DNA of 64,000 bases from an uncultured Lentisphaerales bacterium (GCA_943788985.1 CALSSJ010000017.1:96001-160000); one strand, 5' to 3'. Counted from the stretch's first letter, positions 51,069 through 60,138 are shown. The notes: generated by a model from the sequence alone, not told the origin. Made by a program: numbers and translations.

Positions 51069-52109
51069 ATGACACCGACTCACGACTTGAATATACTTGG
51101 AACTGACGCTCTGATTTCCCCGAGAGAATTATCAGAAACGATGCCAATCTCGCCGGAAGCAGCAGAATGCGTATTGGCAGCACGGGCGGATGTGCGCTCT
51201 ATCCTTCGTGGCGAAGATTCCCGCCTGCTAGTGGTCGTTGGGCCTTGCTCGATTCACGACTCGGATGCGGCGTTAGAGTATGCCCAACGTCTAGCCATAG
51301 TAGCTAGTGAGGTCTCAGACACCATGTTAGTGACCATGCGCGTCTACTTCGAAAAGCCGCGCACGACGGTCGGCTGGAAAGGCCTGATCAACGATCCGCA
51401 TCTAGATGATTCCTTCGATATGAACGGTGGCCTGCGCCTGGCTCGAGAGCTGTTGTTGCAGATCGTGGCTCTAGGGTTGCCGGCCGCGACCGAGATGCTT
51501 GACCCGATTACCCCACAGTACATCTCCGATCTCGTGGCACTGGCGGCTATTGGTGCGCGCACCACTGAGTCGCCGACCCATCGCCAGATGGCCAGTGGCC
51601 TCTCGATGCCAGTGGGCTACAAGAATAGCACCGGTGGCGACCTCAAGACCGCCACAGACGCCATGCTAGCCGCGCGCGCACCACACAGTTTTCTGGGCAT
51701 TGATTACGACGGCAGAACCTGCATCGTCAACACCAGAGGGAACGACGACGGCTTCCTCATTCTTCGCGGCGGCACAGACGGCCCTAACTATGACGCGGCC
51801 AGCGTTGCCAACGCCGACAAAGCGCTAGCTGGCACCGGACTCAGCCCACACATGATGGTCGACTGCAGCCACGCCAACTCGGACAAGGATCATCGCCGGC
51901 AGCGATTGGTCTGGGATAACGTCCTGGCCCAGAAATTTGGCGGCACCAGAAGCGTGGTTGGTATGATGGTGGAGAGTAACCTCCAAGCAGGAAACCAGAA
52001 GGTCAGTGAGACGATGCAATACGGGGTCTCGATCACCGATGCCTGTATCAACTGGCCAGAGACCGAAGACTTGCTGCGCGAAAGCCACGCCACGCTGAAA
52101 AATGCCTGA
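51069..52109 (+). CDS. aroG: DAHP synthase, class I alpha
   Basis: [47 protein letters not shown]; aroF/G/H subtype not resolvable. Confidence 0.9.
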
Positions 52110-52275
52110 CGACGAGTTCGAACTCTACATCTGTATCCCCTGCGGCTACGTCTATGACCCGTCGCTAGGTGACCTCACCCAGGCCGTAGAGCCAGGAGTC
52201 CGGTTTGCGGACCTCGCAGACGACTGGTGGTGCCCCGGCTGCGGCGTGGACAAGACCCAGTTTGCCCTGCTATAG
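52102..52275 (+). CDS. Rubredoxin
   Basis: Manual translation [37 protein letters not shown]; below the ORF-track cutoff. Confidence 0.93.
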
Positions 52276-52324
52276 CTGTTGATGTGCCACACGCATCTGC
52301 GAAATTCTCCCAAAGGAACCGCCT

Positions 52325-54091
52325 ATGTCTACGCTGCCGACTTGGAATCTTGACGATCTCTATACCTCGCCGACCGACCCGAAACTCTCGGAAGACCTGA
52401 GCCAGCTGTCAGTAGAAGCCGATGATTTCGCGGCGCAGTGGCGCGGAAAGCTAGGCCAGGATGCCGCGACTCTGCGCGCTGCGCTGGATCACTACGAGGC
52501 TTTTCAAAGAAAAGCTGCGAAGCCATCCTGCTACGCCAGCCTGCTGTTCTCGACGGACTTGAATGATCCGGAGCGCGGTGCCCTGCTGCAGAGCGTCCGC
52601 GAGGCGATCACAGCCCTGTCGGGCAAACTGGTCTTTTTTGACCTGGAACTGGCCGAACTCCCTGAGGAGCGACTCACGGAGCTGATGGCAGACGACCAGC
52701 TTGCGCCATACGGGCACTATCTAAAGACCGTGGTCGCCCAGGCAAAATACAATCTGAGCGAGCCTGAAGAGAAGATTCTGGTTGCGACCAGCCCCGTGCG
52801 TGGATCGGCTTTTGGCCGGCTGTTCTCAGAGATTCATAGCCGCGCCGTCTATCGCATGTCTGTGGATGGCGAAGAGCAGACGCTGACGCAAAGCGAGATT
52901 CTGGCCAAGGTGTACTCGAGCGATCGAGCCGAACGTGCCGCTGCAGCCGCTGCCGTCACGACCACCCTGAAGGAGCATGCTCACCCGCTTACGTTCATCT
53001 ACAATACGCTGCTGAACGAACGTCAGATCACCGACAGGCTACGCGGTATCGAACGCCCAGAGGGTGGTCGCCACCTGGCAAACGAGCTGTCCTACGAAGT
53101 CGTGGATACGATGTCTTCCGTGTGCGTAAAACACTACCCGATGGTAGCACGCTATTACGAGCTGAAGCGTCGTCTCCTGGGCCTGGAAGAACTTACCCAT
53201 GTGGACCGTTACGCCCCGATCGCCGACAGTCGCAAAGAGATCGCCTACGAAGATGCAAAGCAGCTGGTCTGTGACTCATTCCTGGCCTTCTCCCCGGAGA
53301 TGCACGAGCTGGTGTTGCCGTTCTTCGAGCAGGACTGGATTGATGCCGAATTGAAACCCGGCAAGCAGGGCGGCGCCTTCTGTGCCGGCGTGACACCTGA
53401 TCTGCATCCCTATATCCTAATGAACTACACCGGCAAGCCGCGCGACGTCACCACGCTGGCGCACGAACTGGGGCATGGCATTCATGACCGCTTGGCAGCG
53501 GGCAACCACATGCTGGACTATTACCCCGTCCTCCCGCTTGCGGAGACCGCAAGCACATTCGCCGAGATGCTGGTCTTTGAGCAGTTGAAGCAGAGTCTCA
53601 CCGACCCAGCTGAGCGCCGCGCGCTGCTGTGCGGGAAACTCGAGGATAGCTTCGCCACCATATTCCGACAGGTCGCCATGTTTCGTTTCGAGCAGCAGGC
53701 GCACGCACTGCGACGCGAGCAGGGTGAGCAAACGACCGAGGCGTATAACGCACTCTGGCAGAGCTGTATGCAGGAAATGTTCGGGGACAGCGTTAAGCTT
53801 GGCGACGAGCATGCCTGGTGGTGGCTCTATATTCCGCACATCTATCGCTCCCCGTTCTACGTCTATGCCTATGCTTTTGGGGAGTTGCTGGTCCTATCAC
53901 TCTACGCCCGTTACAAGGAGCAAGGTGCCTCATTTATCCCGTCTTTCTTCGAGCTTCTCGCGGCGGGCGGCAGCGAAAAACCAGAAGATCTTCTAAAACG
54001 ACTGGATATTGACGTTTCCGACAAAACCTTCTGGGCGGGTGGTTGCTCTGTTCTTGCGGCGACGTTAGAGGAACTAGAAGCATTGTGCTGA
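52325..54091 (+). CDS. pepF: M3 family oligoendopeptidase F
   Basis: WNLDDLY, GKQGGAF, TLAHELGHGIH, LAETAS, FYVYAY. Confidence 0.9.
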   Translation: MSTLPTWNLDDLYTSPTDPKLSEDLSQLSVEADDFAAQWRGKLGQDAATLRAALDHYEAFQRKAAKPSCYASLLFSTDLNDPERGALLQSVREAITALSGKLVFFDLELAELPEERLTELMADDQLAPYGHYLKTVVAQAKYNLSEPEEKILVATSPVRGSAFGRLFSEIHSRAVYRMSVDGEEQTLTQSEILAKVYSSDRAERAAAAAAVTTTLKEHAHPLTFIYNTLLNERQITDRLRGIERPEGGRHLANELSYEVVDTMSSVCVKHYPMVARYYELKRRLLGLEELTHVDRYAPIADSRKEIAYEDAKQLVCDSFLAFSPEMHELVLPFFEQDWIDAELKPGKQGGAFCAGVTPDLHPYILMNYTGKPRDVTTLAHELGHGIHDRLAAGNHMLDYYPVLPLAETASTFAEMLVFEQLKQSLTDPAERRALLCGKLEDSFATIFRQVAMFRFEQQAHALRREQGEQTTEAYNALWQSCMQEMFGDSVKLGDEHAWWWLYIPHIYRSPFYVYAYAFGELLVLSLYARYKEQGASFIPSFFELLAAGGSEKPEDLLKRLDIDVSDKTFWAGGCSVLAATLEELEALC

Positions 54092-54094
54092 CTT

Positions 54095-55228
54095 ATGAAT
54101 TGCCCAAGTTGCCAATCTCTAATTGCTCTCAAACAGGTAGTATGCCTAAATTGTGGCTACAATACCGCAACTGGTGCCGTACCTGCGCCCCAGCAGGATG
54201 CGGTACCAGATTGGAAAGCAAAACAGGAGTCGATGCGCGCGAAAACCAGACGCCAAATCCAGATCGCCGGTCTGATTGTCGTTGTCGTTGGCGTACTTGG
54301 CGGCTTCCTGACCGTCTCCTCCTATAAAGGGATACAGGCCCCCAATCAGGCCGAGCACTACCTGACGATCGAGACCCAGCAACTCAGCCCTCTCGCCGTC
54401 AAGGTCTTCACAGAGAATCTCAGCAATCGCATCACGATTCTGAATTCGCTTTACTACGAAGAGAAGTACGCCGAGGCGGACAAGGAAATCGCCACAATCA
54501 TGCAGCTGTTCGCACGCCTCAAGAAGGATGGCTATGAGGCAGCTGAGGCCCATGGCTACCCGACGGTCAGGCTGTGGCTAGAGGCCGAGGAGCACCGCAT
54601 GAAGCAAGCTCTCACAAAGCGTTACGACGAACTGGTCAAGCCCTTGGCCGACTACAAGACCCATGACCGGAAGGATATCGATTCTTTCATATCTAGTGTG
54701 GGTCGGCACTGGGAGATGCAGCAGCGTTTTGAACGCGACTCGCCCCGCATCGACCGGTCAAGGGCAAAACATGTCAGCGGGCATTTTCGCCTGGCCTACG
54801 AAGGGGAGGAGTCTCCCTGTTTCGGAGCGGGCAGCAAAGATCAGACGCGCAGAACGATCATGGAGCCGCTCGAACGGAACATCGGAAAACTGGCTGCGCT
54901 TCCTAGATTGCGCCACCTTCCCTTCGGCCCGATAGAAGAACGGGCAACGTCAGTGTCACTCATTGTTACGCTACGAATGGTCGATGCCGAGAACTCAAAG
55001 CTCTCTTGTCGATTCCACAGCCATATCCATGAGAAGACGAATTGGCCCGGCAAGTATCGGAACGGGTGGAATGCAAAATGGGTAGGTTATGCCTCTGACT
55101 TCAAGAAAAACGAAGACGGCGAGCGCAGCGCCTTCGGCTGGACTGGTGGAGACGAGGTCTACCATCACAAAACCTCTCTGATGGCAGAGGAACTAGAAAA
55201 AGCGTTTCCCCATTTCGTGGCATACTGA
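54095..55228 (+). CDS. Zinc-ribbon single-TM hypothetical protein
   Basis: CPSC..CLNCG N-terminus, one TM helix. Confidence 0.75.
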   Translation: MNCPSCQSLIALKQVVCLNCGYNTATGAVPAPQQDAVPDWKAKQESMRAKTRRQIQIAGLIVVVVGVLGGFLTVSSYKGIQAPNQAEHYLTIETQQLSPLAVKVFTENLSNRITILNSLYYEEKYAEADKEIATIMQLFARLKKDGYEAAEAHGYPTVRLWLEAEEHRMKQALTKRYDELVKPLADYKTHDRKDIDSFISSVGRHWEMQQRFERDSPRIDRSRAKHVSGHFRLAYEGEESPCFGAGSKDQTRRTIMEPLERNIGKLAALPRLRHLPFGPIEERATSVSLIVTLRMVDAENSKLSCRFHSHIHEKTNWPGKYRNGWNAKWVGYASDFKKNEDGERSAFGWTGGDEVYHHKTSLMAEELEKAFPHFVAY

Positions 55229-55229
55229 A

Positions 55230-55772
55230 ATAGCCGAGGCCCTCGCGGCCGCCCCCTACGCAGCAAGCTACTGCGAGGAGAATGCCTGGCACCAGTTGTC
55301 TCGACTGCCCGACGCATCGTATTGGGCGGTGATCGTCAGCAACACCGGTCGTTGTATCCCCTATTTTGCACAGCGCAGCGCAGCCGTCGGTGATCCGGTT
55401 TTCTGGGACTACCACGTCTGGCTCCTGGCTGAGCACGAGGACGAGCTTTATGCGTTGGATCTGGACAGTCGGTTGCCCACGCCAACGCCGCTGACGCTGT
55501 ATCTGGACGCCAGCTTTCCGGAGTATCCAACCTGGCCAAAAGCGTACTGGCCGTGGTTCCGTCCCATCCGGCGTGATCAGTATCTCGCGGAGTTCGCAAG
55601 TGACAGGCGCCACATGCGTGATGGCGAGCGCTGGCACGCCCCTCCCCCACCTTGGCCCTGCATCGGCAACGGACATATCCTCGATGCCTGGCGAGAAATC
55701 CCAGGCGTTGCGCTCCCTGGCAAGGTCCTCACGGTGGACGAATTGATCGAATATCTAACAGCCAGCAGGTAA
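55230..55772 (+). CDS. Protein N-terminal glutamine amidohydrolase (NTAQ1/WDYHV family)
   Basis: YCEENAW (upstream of the track's TTG), FWDYHV, DLDS, FASDRRHM..W..PPPPWPCI. Confidence 0.85.
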   Translation: MAEALAAAPYAASYCEENAWHQLSRLPDASYWAVIVSNTGRCIPYFAQRSAAVGDPVFWDYHVWLLAEHEDELYALDLDSRLPTPTPLTLYLDASFPEYPTWPKAYWPWFRPIRRDQYLAEFASDRRHMRDGERWHAPPPPWPCIGNGHILDAWREIPGVALPGKVLTVDELIEYLTASR

Positions 55773-55828
55773 TTTCGAATGTCCAAGGAAAGACGAACCA
55801 CACGGAAGTCGCAATCTTGATTCCAATG

Positions 55829-55861
55829 TTAACTGGAAATTCCATGTTGGCTGTTGGATAT
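55829..55861 (+). repeat. Repeat family B copy
   Basis: TTAACTGGAAATTCCATGTTGGCTGTTGGATAT. Confidence 0.7.
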
Positions 55862-55947
55862 TCAATGACTCCGAGGTCTGGCTCGCAGTTTTTATATGGA
55901 ATAGTAGGGTTCCGCTCTTCCTGCCCCGCCAACCGTCACGGCACCGC

Positions 55948-57357
55948 ATGACCACATACATCATTCGCAGACTCTTGCTGATGATTCCAACGTTGATTGG
56001 CATCCTCACCATTACGTTCTTGATCTCGGAGTTCGTCCCCGGGGGCCCCATGGACCAGGTTCAGGCGATTCTGCAAGGTCACGATGGCCAGAGCGGCGGC
56101 GAAGTATCCAGCGGTGGCGATGCCAAACGCAAACGAGTGGACCCCTATCTCGAGGCACGGCTCCGCCGACTTTACGGCGTAAACATCCCACGCTGGGAGC
56201 GCTATCTACGACTCTTGGTCTGGTTCGGCCGGGACAGCATCGTCAGTGACGAGGAAGTCGCCGCGGGCACCGCGGCCAAGTTCGTCGCCAATGGCAGAAA
56301 CTGCATCGTCGCCCGGCATCACGACACCTTTTATGCCTGCGTAAATCGCTGGCAGAACAGCGAGTTATCATTCTGTGCAGAAACCGGCCGCTGGCTGAGC
56401 GTAGAACACGACGAGACCTTCGACCCGATTACCGGGCAGCCAACCCTAAGCAGCGGCGAGCCATTGACCGTGCTTCAAGTTGAAGTGCGCGACCGCGGGA
56501 GCGGCCGTGAGGTGTTTCTGAATCAGCCGTTCGCGGAGAGCATCACAAACTGGAGCAACTGGCACGGCTTCTTTCTGTTAAAATTCGGGCAGTCCATCTA
56601 CTACAATAAAAACGTTCTGGAGCTGGTAAAGGAGTGCCTTCCGGTATCGGCCAGTCTGGGGATCATCAGTTTCTTCCTGACCTACACCGTGTGCCTGCTG
56701 CTCGGCCTGGCGAAAGCTGCCCGCCACGGCACCAAGTTCGACCTTACCTCCAGCGCAGTGGTTCTGGTGGGCTACAGCATTCCAGGCTTTGTCCTGGGCG
56801 TCTTGCTCCTAGTCTTATTTGGCCCAGGCGACGGACGCATCGTCGAGGTCATCCCGCTGGCTGGTCTGAACAGCGCAGAGGTGCCCGGCTACGCAGGCTG
56901 GTCCGCCTGGCAGAAACTTCTGGATTACGCCCACCACCTGATCGCCCCCGTGCTCTGCCTGTGCATCGGGAACTTCGCCACCATGACCATGCTCACCAAG
57001 AACAGCGTTCTGGACCAGATTCATCAACAATACGTGATCACAGCTCGCGCCAAGGGCCTGAGCGAACGCAAGATCCTGTTCAAGCACATTCTGCGCAATG
57101 CCCTGATCCCGCTCATCACTGGCTTTCCAAGCGCATTCTTAGGCATGTTCTTTGCCGGTTCACTGCTCATCGAGAAGGTATTCTCCCTCAACGGCCTCGG
57201 CCTGCTAAGCTACGAAGCCGTCATTAACCGCGACTTCCCAATCGTGCTCGGAAGCCTGTTTATCTTTACCATCCTTGGCCTGATCGGGCAGCTGCTGACT
57301 GACCTTTCCTATGTGATTGTCGATCCCAGAATCAGCTTTGAGGAGAGTCAGGGCTGA
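55948..57357 (+). CDS. yejB: Peptide ABC transporter permease, YejB-like, with inserted domain
   Basis: YIIRRLLLMIPTL..PGGP, LTKNS.LD, TARAKGL, YIVDPRI-like end. Confidence 0.75.
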   Translation: MTTYIIRRLLLMIPTLIGILTITFLISEFVPGGPMDQVQAILQGHDGQSGGEVSSGGDAKRKRVDPYLEARLRRLYGVNIPRWERYLRLLVWFGRDSIVSDEEVAAGTAAKFVANGRNCIVARHHDTFYACVNRWQNSELSFCAETGRWLSVEHDETFDPITGQPTLSSGEPLTVLQVEVRDRGSGREVFLNQPFAESITNWSNWHGFFLLKFGQSIYYNKNVLELVKECLPVSASLGIISFFLTYTVCLLLGLAKAARHGTKFDLTSSAVVLVGYSIPGFVLGVLLLVLFGPGDGRIVEVIPLAGLNSAEVPGYAGWSAWQKLLDYAHHLIAPVLCLCIGNFATMTMLTKNSVLDQIHQQYVITARAKGLSERKILFKHILRNALIPLITGFPSAFLGMFFAGSLLIEKVFSLNGLGLLSYEAVINRDFPIVLGSLFIFTILGLIGQLLTDLSYVIVDPRISFEESQG

Positions 57358-58598
57358 TGATCAACCCAGAACTCCATGCCTCGATCCAGCGGTTTCGGTC
57401 CAATCGGATTGCTTGGTACAGCTCACTGATCCTCACGGCCATGTTTTTGTGCAGCCTCCCCGCCGAGCTGATCTTTAATGACAAACCGCTGGCGATGCAA
57501 ATCGACGGTGCTTGGTACTTCCCATGCGTCAAAAGCTACTCTCTCGCCGACTTCGGCGGCGATGGCGAGATCAAGATCGAGGACTATCAAAGCCGTGAGC
57601 TGATCGACTTTCTGAACGGGGTCATTCGCGAGCAGGACCTGGAGTCGGTCTTCGGCAGCAGCGATGAGTTTGATGATGAATTCAGTGATGAGTTCAGTGA
57701 TGAACTGGAAGCACCGCCTGCCGACGATGCGACGGCGGAGGCCGCTCCGGAAGCAGCTAAGCACAGCCATCGTTTCATCTGGCCGCTTTATCGCCACAGC
57801 TATCGGTCTGAAATGCGGGAGCCCAAGTCCGGCCGCGCCAAGCTGGCCGCGCCGTGGCCCGAATACGTAGAATACGAGAAGCGTACCTACGAAAGCAGCC
57901 ATCGGGACGGCCAGTTGCTCGGCACAGATGCTCAGGGTAAGGATGTACTCTCACGCATCGTCTACGGCTTCCGCATCGCCATGTTCTTCGGGCTTGGACT
58001 CGCGATTACCGGTACTGTGCTCGGCTGCCTGATCGGCGGCATCCAAGGCTATTTCGGCGGCTGGGTCGACCTGCTTGGCCAGCGAGTCACCGAGATTTGG
58101 GGCTCAATGCCACGGCTCTATCTGCTTATTATCCTCAGCTCGTTTCTGGCCCGCTGGCAGATTACCGACCTGCAACACCTGCTGGTGCTGTTCGGCATCC
58201 TCAATCTCACGGCTTGGATGGGCACCGCCACCTATATCCGCGCTGAGTTTCTCAAGGCTCGTAACCTCGACTACGTGCGCGCAGCCAAGGCTCTCGGGCA
58301 ACCAGATTGGCGGATCATGCTGCGCCATATTCTACCAAATTCTCTGACACCAGTGGTGACCTTCTTTCCATTCGAGGCAACCGGCGGCATTCTCGCCCTG
58401 ACCAGCCTGGATTTCCTGCAACTGGGCGTTCGCTACCCGGCTCCGAGCCTCGGTGAGCTTCTCAGCCAGGGCCAGGAAAACCTGCATGCCATCTGGATTA
58501 TTGTGCCCACCTTTCTCATCCTGACGGTCGCCTTGATGCTGCTGACCTTTGTCGGCGACGGAATCCGAAACGCCTTCGACCCGCACCACCATGGCTGA
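57357..58598 (+). CDS. yejE: Peptide ABC transporter permease, YejE-like
   Basis: AELIFNDKPL, LGTDAQGKDVLSRIVYGFR, QGYFGG, YVRAAKALG. Confidence 0.8.
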   Translation: MINPELHASIQRFRSNRIAWYSSLILTAMFLCSLPAELIFNDKPLAMQIDGAWYFPCVKSYSLADFGGDGEIKIEDYQSRELIDFLNGVIREQDLESVFGSSDEFDDEFSDEFSDELEAPPADDATAEAAPEAAKHSHRFIWPLYRHSYRSEMREPKSGRAKLAAPWPEYVEYEKRTYESSHRDGQLLGTDAQGKDVLSRIVYGFRIAMFFGLGLAITGTVLGCLIGGIQGYFGGWVDLLGQRVTEIWGSMPRLYLLIILSSFLARWQITDLQHLLVLFGILNLTAWMGTATYIRAEFLKARNLDYVRAAKALGQPDWRIMLRHILPNSLTPVVTFFPFEATGGILALTSLDFLQLGVRYPAPSLGELLSQGQENLHAIWIIVPTFLILTVALMLLTFVGDGIRNAFDPHHHG

Positions 58599-60138
58599 AG
58601 CTGCCCGGTTCCGTACGCTGATTGCGATCGGGCTGCTGCTCACGGTCACCATCCTGTGCTTTGGCCAGGCGCTCGGTTTTCCCTACACCAATTGGGATGA
58701 TCTGCAATTCATCACCACCAATCCCGCAATCCGCCAAGATCAGGCCATGGCTCTATTCAGGATCGACAGCGTGCAGGGCGAGCGACTCTACATCCCGCTC
58801 ACCTATCTCAGCTACTGGCTGGAGCGCTGGCTCGGCGGACCGGACGCGATCACAACGCACTTGCTGAATCTGCTGCTGCACCTTTCGAATGTGCTTCTGG
58901 TCTTCGCGCTTCTCACCAAGCTTCAGACTGGGACGCGGTCGGTTGTGGCGGCGTGCCTGGGGGCGGCAGTCTTCGCCATCCATCCGTTGCAGGCCGAGGC
59001 CGTCTGTTGGGCCATGGGCCGCAAGGACCTGCTGAGCGGTCTATTTGCCCTATCGGGCTTACTGCTGTTTGTGTGCGGAGTTCGCAAAGAGCGAGCCTTG
59101 CTCTGCTGGCTGGCTGTGATTGCCTTCGCCTTCGGCTGCCTGGCGAAGCCTAGCATCATCGTGCTGCCAGCGGTCTTTGCGCTGCTAGCCTGGCACCTCA
59201 AGGGCCGGCCTCGCACGGTCCTGCTCCCACTCGGTGCTGGCTGCATCGTGGCAATTGCGATCTTCGCAATCTCCCGCGTTCTGCCCACCGAAGGTGCGCC
59301 GGAGCTGCCGCCGCTCGCAGAGCGCCTGCGGCTGCTTCCTGCGTTGGCCTGGCACTGGGCCAGCCACCTGCTGGTCCCGATCCGGTTGAGCTCGTTCTAT
59401 ACGCTCACTGCCCCGACCTGGCGCGTGATTGCGGGGCTGGGCGCGGTCTGCGCCGTGCTTCTTGTCCTGTGGAAGGGCGGCCGCTCGCTGCGCACCGGGC
59501 TGGGAGTTACAGCCATCCTCCTGGTACCAGCTGCAGTGATCGTCCTGCAACACCGTGACTTCCTCACCGGCGATCGCTACGGCTACCTCGCGGTCATCGG
59601 TCTGGGGTTCCTGATCAGCGAGGCTGCCCGCAGCCGCCGCACGCAGTGGCTATGTGGGACTGGGGGCCTGGTCCTGGCAATTCTCACCGTCCCAGCCGTC
59701 CAGACCTGGTCTAACGACCGCGCGGTCTGGCAAAGCGCACTTCGCTACGACACGACCAACCCTGTCGCCTGGAACAACCTCGGACTCTCACACAGACACG
59801 CTGGCAACCATCCCGAAGCGCTTCGTTGCTTCGAGCAAGGCCTCGCGCACGCCCCCGACAACCACACCTTGCGCACCAATCAGGGCGATACGCTATTCGC
59901 GCTGGGACGGGAAGACGACGCCCTAGCAGCGTTCTTACGTGTGGCGAGCCGACACCTGTGGAGCTTTCAAGCGCTTGCCGGTGCTGGCCGGGTATTTGAG
60001 AGTCGCGGAGAATGGGACAAAGCAGAGCAGGCCTATCGCCGCGCGCTTGGCGGCAATCGCGACTACACACCTGCAAAGCAAGGCCTGGAGCGAGTACTGG
60101 ACCAGCGGCGGGCCGAAGCTACGAAGCAAGAGAAATGA
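58591..60138 (+). CDS. Second TMTC-like GT-C/TPR membrane protein
   Basis: NWDD, YIPL, HPLQAEAV.W..GRKD, GDRYGYL, C-terminal TPRs. Confidence 0.8.
   Translation: MAEAARFRTLIAIGLLLTVTILCFGQALGFPYTNWDDLQFITTNPAIRQDQAMALFRIDSVQGERLYIPLTYLSYWLERWLGGPDAITTHLLNLLLHLSNVLLVFALLTKLQTGTRSVVAACLGAAVFAIHPLQAEAVCWAMGRKDLLSGLFALSGLLLFVCGVRKERALLCWLAVIAFAFGCLAKPSIIVLPAVFALLAWHLKGRPRTVLLPLGAGCIVAIAIFAISRVLPTEGAPELPPLAERLRLLPALAWHWASHLLVPIRLSSFYTLTAPTWRVIAGLGAVCAVLLVLWKGGRSLRTGLGVTAILLVPAAVIVLQHRDFLTGDRYGYLAVIGLGFLISEAARSRRTQWLCGTGGLVLAILTVPAVQTWSNDRAVWQSALRYDTTNPVAWNNLGLSHRHAGNHPEALRCFEQGLAHAPDNHTLRTNQGDTLFALGREDDALAAFLRVASRHLWSFQALAGAGRVFESRGEWDKAEQAYRRALGGNRDYTPAKQGLERVLDQRRAEATKQEK

Follow-up and report, generated by a model that had tools for sequence, protein, structure and literature searches.

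An NTAQ1-family N-terminal glutamine amidase gene without a canonical start in an uncultured Lentisphaerales bacterium

Does an enzyme family treated as eukaryotic have a place in bacterial protein turnover? The question is raised by a gene at positions 55212-55772 (plus strand) of a 64,000-nucleotide stretch of DNA from an uncultured Lentisphaerales bacterium (GCA_943788985.1, CALSSJ010000017.1:96001-160000; the whole stretch is referred to here as the window). The predicted product resembles NTAQ1 (WDYHV1), which converts N-terminal (Nt) glutamine to glutamate. In the relevant passages of two accounts (PMC4214742; PMC9351520), Nt-amidases are treated as eukaryotic, and passages of this kind place them at the top of the Arg/N-degron hierarchy of eukaryotes. 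An earlier note on this DNA, made from the sequence alone, had assigned the gene to the NTAQ1 family, placed it in a peptide uptake and turnover gene run and suggested that it may feed a bacterial N-degron route. The window gene is a true member of the family (PF09764, Nt_Gln_amidase), and it has no canonical start codon upstream of its catalytic cysteine.

Translation of the window shows a single frame on the plus strand that opens at 55197, directly after a TAG at 55194-55196, and continues to a TAA at 55770-55772; the 186 codons of the amidase contain no internal stop or frameshift. All of the motifs picked out in the earlier note fall in this one frame: YCEEN (55269-55283), WDYHV (55404-55418), DLD (55458-55466), FASDRRHM (55593-55616) and PPPPWPCI (55641-55664). 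The set is far beyond chance, because the translation matches the PF09764 profile from position 1 to position 176 of its 184 positions, with an E-value of 2.1e-37 and a score of 128.9 bits (cut-off, 27), a profile search that bears out the proposed family identity. As for the boundaries given earlier, 55230-55772, the end at 55772 stands; 55230 is an ATA codon, within a frame that opens upstream of it. A profile scan of the whole genome (4.58 Mb, 83.6% complete) found this to be its only PF09764 copy.

The residues expected of an NTAQ1 enzyme are in place. The catalytic triad of human NTAQ1 (hNTAQ1) is given in a section of PMC4214742 as Cys28, His81 and Asp97. A Protein Data Bank (PDB) sequence search with the amidase matched hNTAQ1 (4W79 and 3C9Q) at an E-value of 2.8e-24, and C25, H72 and D87 of the window protein (P0001, its translation counted from nucleotide 55200) align with these three residues in 4W79, in line with the Cys-His-Asp triad that the earlier note ascribes to NTAQ1. 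In a 22-sequence family alignment (A1), H72 and D87 are invariant and C25 is nearly so, and the window protein keeps all 16 invariant columns. Substrate α-amino and backbone contacts in hNTAQ1 are made by Glu29, Asp79, His148 (via waters), Tyr80 and Met149 (PMC11168063, section 2.3). E26, D70, Y71, H138 and M139 of the window protein match Glu29, Asp79, Tyr80, His148 and Met149, respectively, and are invariant or nearly so in the same alignment.

An AlphaFold2 model built on the 22-sequence alignment reached a mean predicted local distance difference test score of 91.6 and a predicted template modelling (TM) score of 0.89. The 15 top PDB structural matches listed by Foldseek are all hNTAQ1 (including 8JJF and 4W79), at E-values of about 4e-15 (best, 3.6e-15), a TM-score of 0.82, a root-mean-square deviation of about 2.1 Å and 33-34% identity, and the next fold, bacterial protein-glutaminase, reaches a TM-score of only 0.44. 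As modelled, the window amidase has the three-layer α-β-β-α fold of hNTAQ1. Judged by its sequence, this is a real bacterial NTAQ1 member with complete catalytic residues; membership of the family is firm as far as computation allows, and catalytic activity is predicted.

What, then, might such an enzyme act for? The genome of the same organism encodes ClpS (NF000672, above cut-off) followed directly by ClpA (partial, at the end of the locus), Aat (TIGR00667, above cut-off) and a 258-residue Bpt-type transferase with ATE_N and ATE_C domains that scores 197.7 bits against NF002346 ('arginyltransferase'; cut-off, 170). PF02617, PF03588, PF04377 and PF04376 all score above their cut-offs. Every gene that the earlier note had named as worth seeking in this genome (aat, bpt and clpS) is thus present, and clpA with them. 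The amidase lies on contig C17 and the N-degron genes, unlinked to it, on C6, C13 and C23. As set out in parts of two sources, Bpt of Vibrio vulnificus adds leucine to Nt-Asp and Nt-Glu (10.1101/2021.07.26.453911; PMC9351520). Given that ClpS-ClpA, Aat and Bpt are encoded in this genome and that Bpt accepts Nt-Glu, a route from Nt-Gln through Nt-Glu to Leu-Glu is chemically available.

We propose that a cytoplasmic cysteine amidase of about 186 residues would bind a peptide or protein fragment by its free α-amino end, and that the enzyme's Cys-His-Asp triad would hydrolyse the side-chain amide of an N-terminal glutamine to yield N-terminal glutamate and ammonia. ATT 55212, a rare initiator, would serve as the start, with translation probably either weak or coupled to that of the gene overlapping it upstream. 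[quoted passage not shown] We regard the chances of this reading, in which an NTAQ1-type amidase with an ATT start feeds Bpt and ClpS-ClpAP in its own organism, as evenly balanced. For this lineage, the route that leads from Gln by way of Glu and Leu-Glu to ClpS is, we infer, the best mechanism available.

Features of the start, of the 3′ end and of the distribution of the N-degron genes weigh against this proposal. Between the TAG at 55194-55196 and TTG 55296, the amidase frame contains no ATG, GTG or TTG, and this TTG, the first canonical start, is downstream of the cysteine codon (55272-55274). ATT 55212 and ATA 55230 are the only initiators of translation table 11 that keep the cysteine; ATT and ATA are very weak initiators, and inspection of the sequence found no Shine-Dalgarno-like motif at a proper distance. 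The alternative starts TTG 55296 and GTG 55329 both lose the catalytic cysteine, which would be part of the protein only if translation began at ATT 55212 or ATA 55230. The 12 members of the 90% protein cluster comprise nine of 147 residues (GTG 55329), two of 158 (TTG 55296) and one of 186, the last being an NCBI record that reads ATT 55212 as methionine; 11 of these 12 gene calls therefore lack the cysteine and would be catalytically dead. At the other end of the gene, the last seven codons and the stop are encoded by the left arm of a dispersed repeat.

The missing canonical start is not an assembly error, because the start region is identical in an independent Joint Genome Institute contig (99.975% identity over 3975 nucleotides) and in contigs of other studies. 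DNA contigs of two further studies span the region without a difference there; X5 covers 54094-55980 (one difference, elsewhere) and X9 covers 55185-55664. The studies in which this region is identical date from 2014 to 2025, and the runs that contain the stretch are marine and estuary metagenomes. Metatranscriptome contigs from two libraries, which belong to the study that also provided a possible source sample, cover 55158-55437 and 55481-56180. This is no proof of transcription; the matched runs are all contigs, which carry no transcript ends, strand or level, and gaps in the RNA libraries have no meaning.

Relatives of the gene suggest where translation may begin. A canonical start stands 8-18 codons before the cysteine in all seven relatives' loci examined. 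In the closest relative found by exhaustive search (P0034; 48% identity, 182 residues), the initial methionine puts the cysteine at residue 21, the same spacing as from ATT 55212, and the N-terminal 20 residues can be aligned; the AlphaFold2 model folds the residues from 55212 onwards into an N-terminal helix. From this spacing, alignment and modelled helix we infer that ATT 55212 is probably the start, or the ancestral start, of the amidase. The stop of the upstream zinc-ribbon gene, TGA 55226-55228, falls between the two candidate codons, such that this gene overlaps the amidase by 17 nucleotides from ATT 55212 and ends 1 nucleotide before ATA 55230; translational coupling is therefore conceivable. 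The lack of a canonical start before the catalytic cysteine is a new point.

The distribution of Bpt gives a mixed answer. Among 41 genomes of the window's order and class, Bpt is found in all 10 that carry the amidase versus 9 of the 31 that do not (Fisher P = 8e-5, uncorrected for relatedness). In 201 genomes drawn evenly from the Myxococcota, the corresponding figures are 7 of 23 and 47 of 178 (P = 0.80, likewise uncorrected). Among 121 Chromatiales genomes they are 8 of 8 (7 above cut-off) and 102 of 113, a comparison that is uninformative because Bpt is nearly universal in that order (110/121). We also collected 57 other amidase loci, 8 from the same order or class and 49 found with one peptide pattern in 185,579 species genomes. 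Bpt is encoded in 38 of the 48 genomes behind the pattern-found loci; the 10 without it include four with spirochaete record titles. Searches of the 57 loci with tblastn found bpt, clpS and clpA beside the amidase in none of them and aat within 4 kb of it in only one (L021:4306-4851, about 3.2 kb upstream).

The bacterial N-degron route through Bpt suggested in the earlier note thus stands in part: its components are present and co-occurrence is strict within the window's own class, whereas the Myxococcota sample shows no association. In this lineage the link with Bpt is plausible, yet it cannot explain in general why bacteria have the family, because in the Myxococcota sample the proportions are similar whether or not the amidase is present, and Bpt is missing from 10 of the 48 genomes. 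It is possible, if doubtful, that Lentisphaeria and other Bpt-bearing bacteria have a three-tier Leu/N-degron pathway that resembles the Arg/N-degron pathway, in which the NTAQ1 homologue would deamidate Nt-Gln (tertiary), Bpt would leucylate Nt-Glu (secondary), and ClpS would bind Nt-Leu (primary) for degradation by ClpAP. Were this so, the overlap of the ATT start with the membrane-protein gene would limit the amount of amidase or make its synthesis depend on that gene, and the NTAQ1 branch of eukaryotes would have a counterpart, or even its origin, in bacteria.

Alternatively, the amidase may serve peptide salvage, by converting the Nt-Gln of oligopeptides that are imported or made by the neighbouring M3 peptidase to glutamate before cyclisation to pyroglutamate blocks aminopeptidases. 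We consider this unlikely, although genomes that carry the amidase without Bpt are many (16 of the 23 amidase-positive Myxococcota and the 10 of 48 noted above), and some part of the family must therefore have a role that does not depend on Bpt. The genome yielded no pyroglutamyl peptidase I (PF01470), an absence that at 83.6% completeness is weak evidence for salvage. Local packing is tight, which fits salvage: the pepF-like gene ends at 54091, the zinc-ribbon gene begins 3 nucleotides later at 54095, and the amidase overlaps or abuts the latter. The oligoendopeptidase F, zinc-ribbon membrane protein and YejB/YejE-like permease genes reported earlier as co-oriented with the amidase are all there (Table 1), with the permeases scoring below their profile cut-offs.

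This arrangement is not conserved. The 57 other loci were searched by tblastn with eight neighbours from the window, among them pepF, the zinc-ribbon gene, yejB and yejE; none of these four adjoined the amidase at any locus (each 0/57), and neighbourhood was ruled out as pathway evidence. Only in the window's own lineage does the amidase adjoin pepF and yejBE, and the peptide-transport context is incidental. A strong hairpin repeat lies between the amidase and yejB, and no gene for a substrate-binding protein or an ATP-binding cassette (ABC) ATPase flanks yejBE in the window, both of which speak against salvage. The peptide uptake and turnover run proposed in the earlier note does not survive as a functional unit, nor did a survey of neighbourhoods recover it elsewhere. 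A scan of 51900-58800 for promoter and terminator consensus sequences gave counts near the shuffled expectation and is uninformative on an operon.

Table 1. Coordinates of the amidase gene, its catalytic codons, adjoining features of the window and Lon-domain genes next to amidases of genus g3
Feature	Position	Strand	Evidence or remark
M3-family oligoendopeptidase (PepF-like)	52325..54091	+	PF01432, PF08439; TIGR02290 606.6 bits (cut-off 561.7)
Orphan zinc-ribbon protein, 377 residues	54095..55228	+	CxxC..CxxC N-terminal; one hydrophobic segment
NTAQ1-family N-terminal glutamine amidase gene	55212..55772	+	186 codons if ATT 55212 is the start
Catalytic Cys codon TGC (aligned to human Cys28)	55272..55274	+	phmmer alignment to 4W79; 5′ of first canonical start
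Catalytic His codon in WDYHV (aligned to human His81)	55413..55415	+	alignment
Catalytic Asp codon in DLD (aligned to human Asp97)	55458..55460	+	alignment
Palindromic dispersed repeat, long hairpin (about 115 nucleotides)	55749..55863	+	genome copies, folding; between amidase and yejB
YejB-like ABC permease	55948..57357	+	PF00528; NF011712 339.7 bits (below cut-off 445)
YejE-like ABC permease	57357..58598	+	PF00528, OppC_N; NF011596 283.9 bits (below cut-off 439)
Lon-domain gene of genus g3, L012	8531-9178
Lon-domain gene of genus g3, L014	9608-10243	-
Lon-domain gene of genus g3, L015	2711-3346

The zinc-ribbon protein matches no Pfam family and nothing usable in the Atlas (low-confidence model), and only its first 70 or so residues match, weakly, at 3 of 40 relatives. 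Both permeases are long, at 469 and 413 residues where their profiles have 364 and 341 positions, and carry additional sequence ahead of the conserved permease core.

Which genes, then, accompany the amidase elsewhere? At most loci, a gene on the same strand ends within about 20-60 nucleotides upstream of the cysteine codon, and tight coupling of the amidase to some upstream gene is common. The partners are highly diverse, a further point against salvage. Of 40 upstream genes compared with Pfam, 12 match no family and the other 28 represent about 17 different architectures: α/β-hydrolases (S33-like) account for seven, DUF1003 and the Lon substrate-binding domain for three each, and FHA, phosphoenolpyruvate carboxylase and NamZ for two each, with AraC, MFS, MMPL and Amidase among the single cases. 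The hydrolases directly 5′ of the gene in some lineages (the seven α/β-hydrolases and the one Amidase-family protein) fit a salvage role. A common upstream partner, such as a zinc-ribbon or FHA protein, was ruled out as a general feature by this diversity, with FHA present only twice. All-against-all clustering of the flanking open reading frames of the 57 loci found no neighbour common beyond single lineages; an apparent neighbour cluster of 40 loci proved to be the antisense frame of the amidase itself.

Some lineages do show recurrent partners. An α/β-hydrolase gene (Abhydrolase_1/S33-like) abuts the amidase on its 5′ side in Nannocystaceae-type loci (L034, L043, L044, L047, L062 and L064), a DUF1003 gene does so in Kofleriaceae-type loci (L023, L030 and L032) and an FHA-domain gene in two Myxococcota loci (L025 and L053). 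In genus g3, which belongs to the same order as the window, the amidase overlaps by 4 nucleotides a gene whose product is a stand-alone Lon substrate-binding (N-terminal) domain in all three loci with enough flank (Table 1). The encoded protein has about 211 residues and matches PF02190 at an E-value of about 1e-30, suggesting a proteolysis-linked pair and another link between the amidase and proteolysis.

A further explanation is that the gene is silent or decaying: an ancestral ATG would have become ATT, a mobile repeat would have overwritten the 3′ end, and the frame would still be open because the damage is recent. The 3′ end is indeed made by a dispersed palindromic repeat, which also splits the amidase from yejB; the final seven codons of the gene, with its stop, lie in the left arm. 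Allowing up to 3 mismatches, the genome contains 15 copies of the 29-nucleotide right arm (55835-55863), versus 0 for a reversed control, and matches to the inverted left arm occur in other copies too. The sequence from 55749 to 55863 folds with a minimum free energy of -43.6 kcal/mol (z = -4.26; equalled by 0 of 200 shuffles), contigs of all four matched runs branch with loose ends at about 55834 and 55863-55865, and Rfam gave only sub-threshold chance matches on 55600-56100.

Decay would account for this repeat-made end and for a start region that, between TAG 55194 and TTG 55296, lacks the canonical codon seen in all seven relatives. Loss also occurs in the group. In a genome of the same class (G040), the family is represented by no more than a fragment, at C228:91243-91434 (L010, L018), which covers profile positions 70-133 and is interrupted by a TAG; it therefore looks like a broken copy. 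Yet the 186 codons of the window gene are free of stops and frameshifts, and the 16 invariant columns are kept along with YCEEN, a motif 5′ of TTG 55296 that would go untranslated from either TTG or GTG. The start region has stayed the same across contigs of independent studies from 2014 to 2025, ATT is accepted in translation table 11 and annotated as the start in one NCBI record, the overlap with the upstream gene permits coupling, and the match to the PF09764 profile has reached position 176 of 184 by the point where the repeat starts. On this evidence we think decay improbable, and we retain an amidase that may be translated from ATT 55212 as the preferred reading.

The remaining explanation, that a +1 frameshift near TGA 55226 appends the amidase to the C terminus of the zinc-ribbon membrane protein, is scarcely credible. 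It would fit an amidase frame that opens at 55197, before the upstream gene has ended, and has no canonical start, and longer family members exist (for example, of 325 and 401 residues), but homologues stand alone at about 175-190 residues with a methionine about 8-20 residues before the cysteine, none of the relatives of the zinc-ribbon protein is fused to the amidase family and no recognisable slippery sequence was seen at the junction, on which ground a programmed frameshift fusion was ruled out.

How widely does the family occur? An exhaustive search recovered 1661 clusters (50% identity) at E-values of 1e-3 or lower and 957 at 1e-10 or lower. Named bacterial hosts include Myxococcota, Chromatiaceae (among them cultured Halochromatium, Lamprocystis and Lamprobacter), Thermodesulfobacteriota, Acidobacteriota and records titled Spirochaetaceae. 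The NTAQ1 family is not represented by a model in NCBIfam, and a literature search of full texts, with supplements and the founding paper outside its scope, found no paper on a bacterial NTAQ1 or Nt-amidase, in agreement with the statement of the earlier note that no bacterial role is established. The window amidase belongs to a known but unstudied bacterial branch of NTAQ1. In a quick tree of 63 family members, which left out L037 (on the same contig as L013) as well as L018 and L056 (no CEEN motif in the open reading frame), the window sequence pairs with P0034 (SH-like approximate likelihood ratio test, 94). We draw no conclusion on the origin or transfer of the amidase from this tree, because its backbone is unresolved and sequences from the same order do not group.

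These results have two consequences, one of them practical. Standard gene callers shorten the amidase and remove its nucleophile, and automated annotation therefore understates the gene. In addition, one genome holds an NTAQ1 homologue with complete catalytic residues together with Bpt, Aat and ClpS-ClpA, which makes Nt-Gln as a bacterial degradation signal directly testable.

The closest known system is eukaryotic NTAQ1/WDYHV1 (3C9Q, 4W79, 6KGJ and 8JJF-8JK2), which, like the window amidase, is a single-domain PF09764 protein of similar size. The two share 33-34% identity over 184 columns for the human enzyme, its fold, its triad and the five residues that recognise the N terminus. They differ in that the bacterial host has neither ubiquitin nor ATE1-type arginylation, so that the downstream steps would fall to Bpt and ClpS-ClpAP, and in that the window gene has a non-canonical start and a repeat-shaped 3′ end.

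[quoted passage not shown] As described in those portions, however, the pathway comprises primary and secondary destabilising residues only; the literature search found no account of an amidase step in bacteria, and here the pathway's genes are unlinked to the amidase and their co-occurrence with it is mixed. Protein-glutaminase of Chryseobacterium and Flavobacterium (2ZK9 and 8Z3I), with other transglutaminase-like cysteine hydrolases, shares a papain- or transglutaminase-like core and Cys-His-Asp chemistry on glutamine side chains with the window amidase, but the resemblance is distant (TM-score of 0.44, 14% identity). These enzymes are produced as pro-enzymes, are secreted and attack glutamine at internal positions, whereas the residues that recognise the N terminus, all of which the window protein retains, are specific to NTAQ1.

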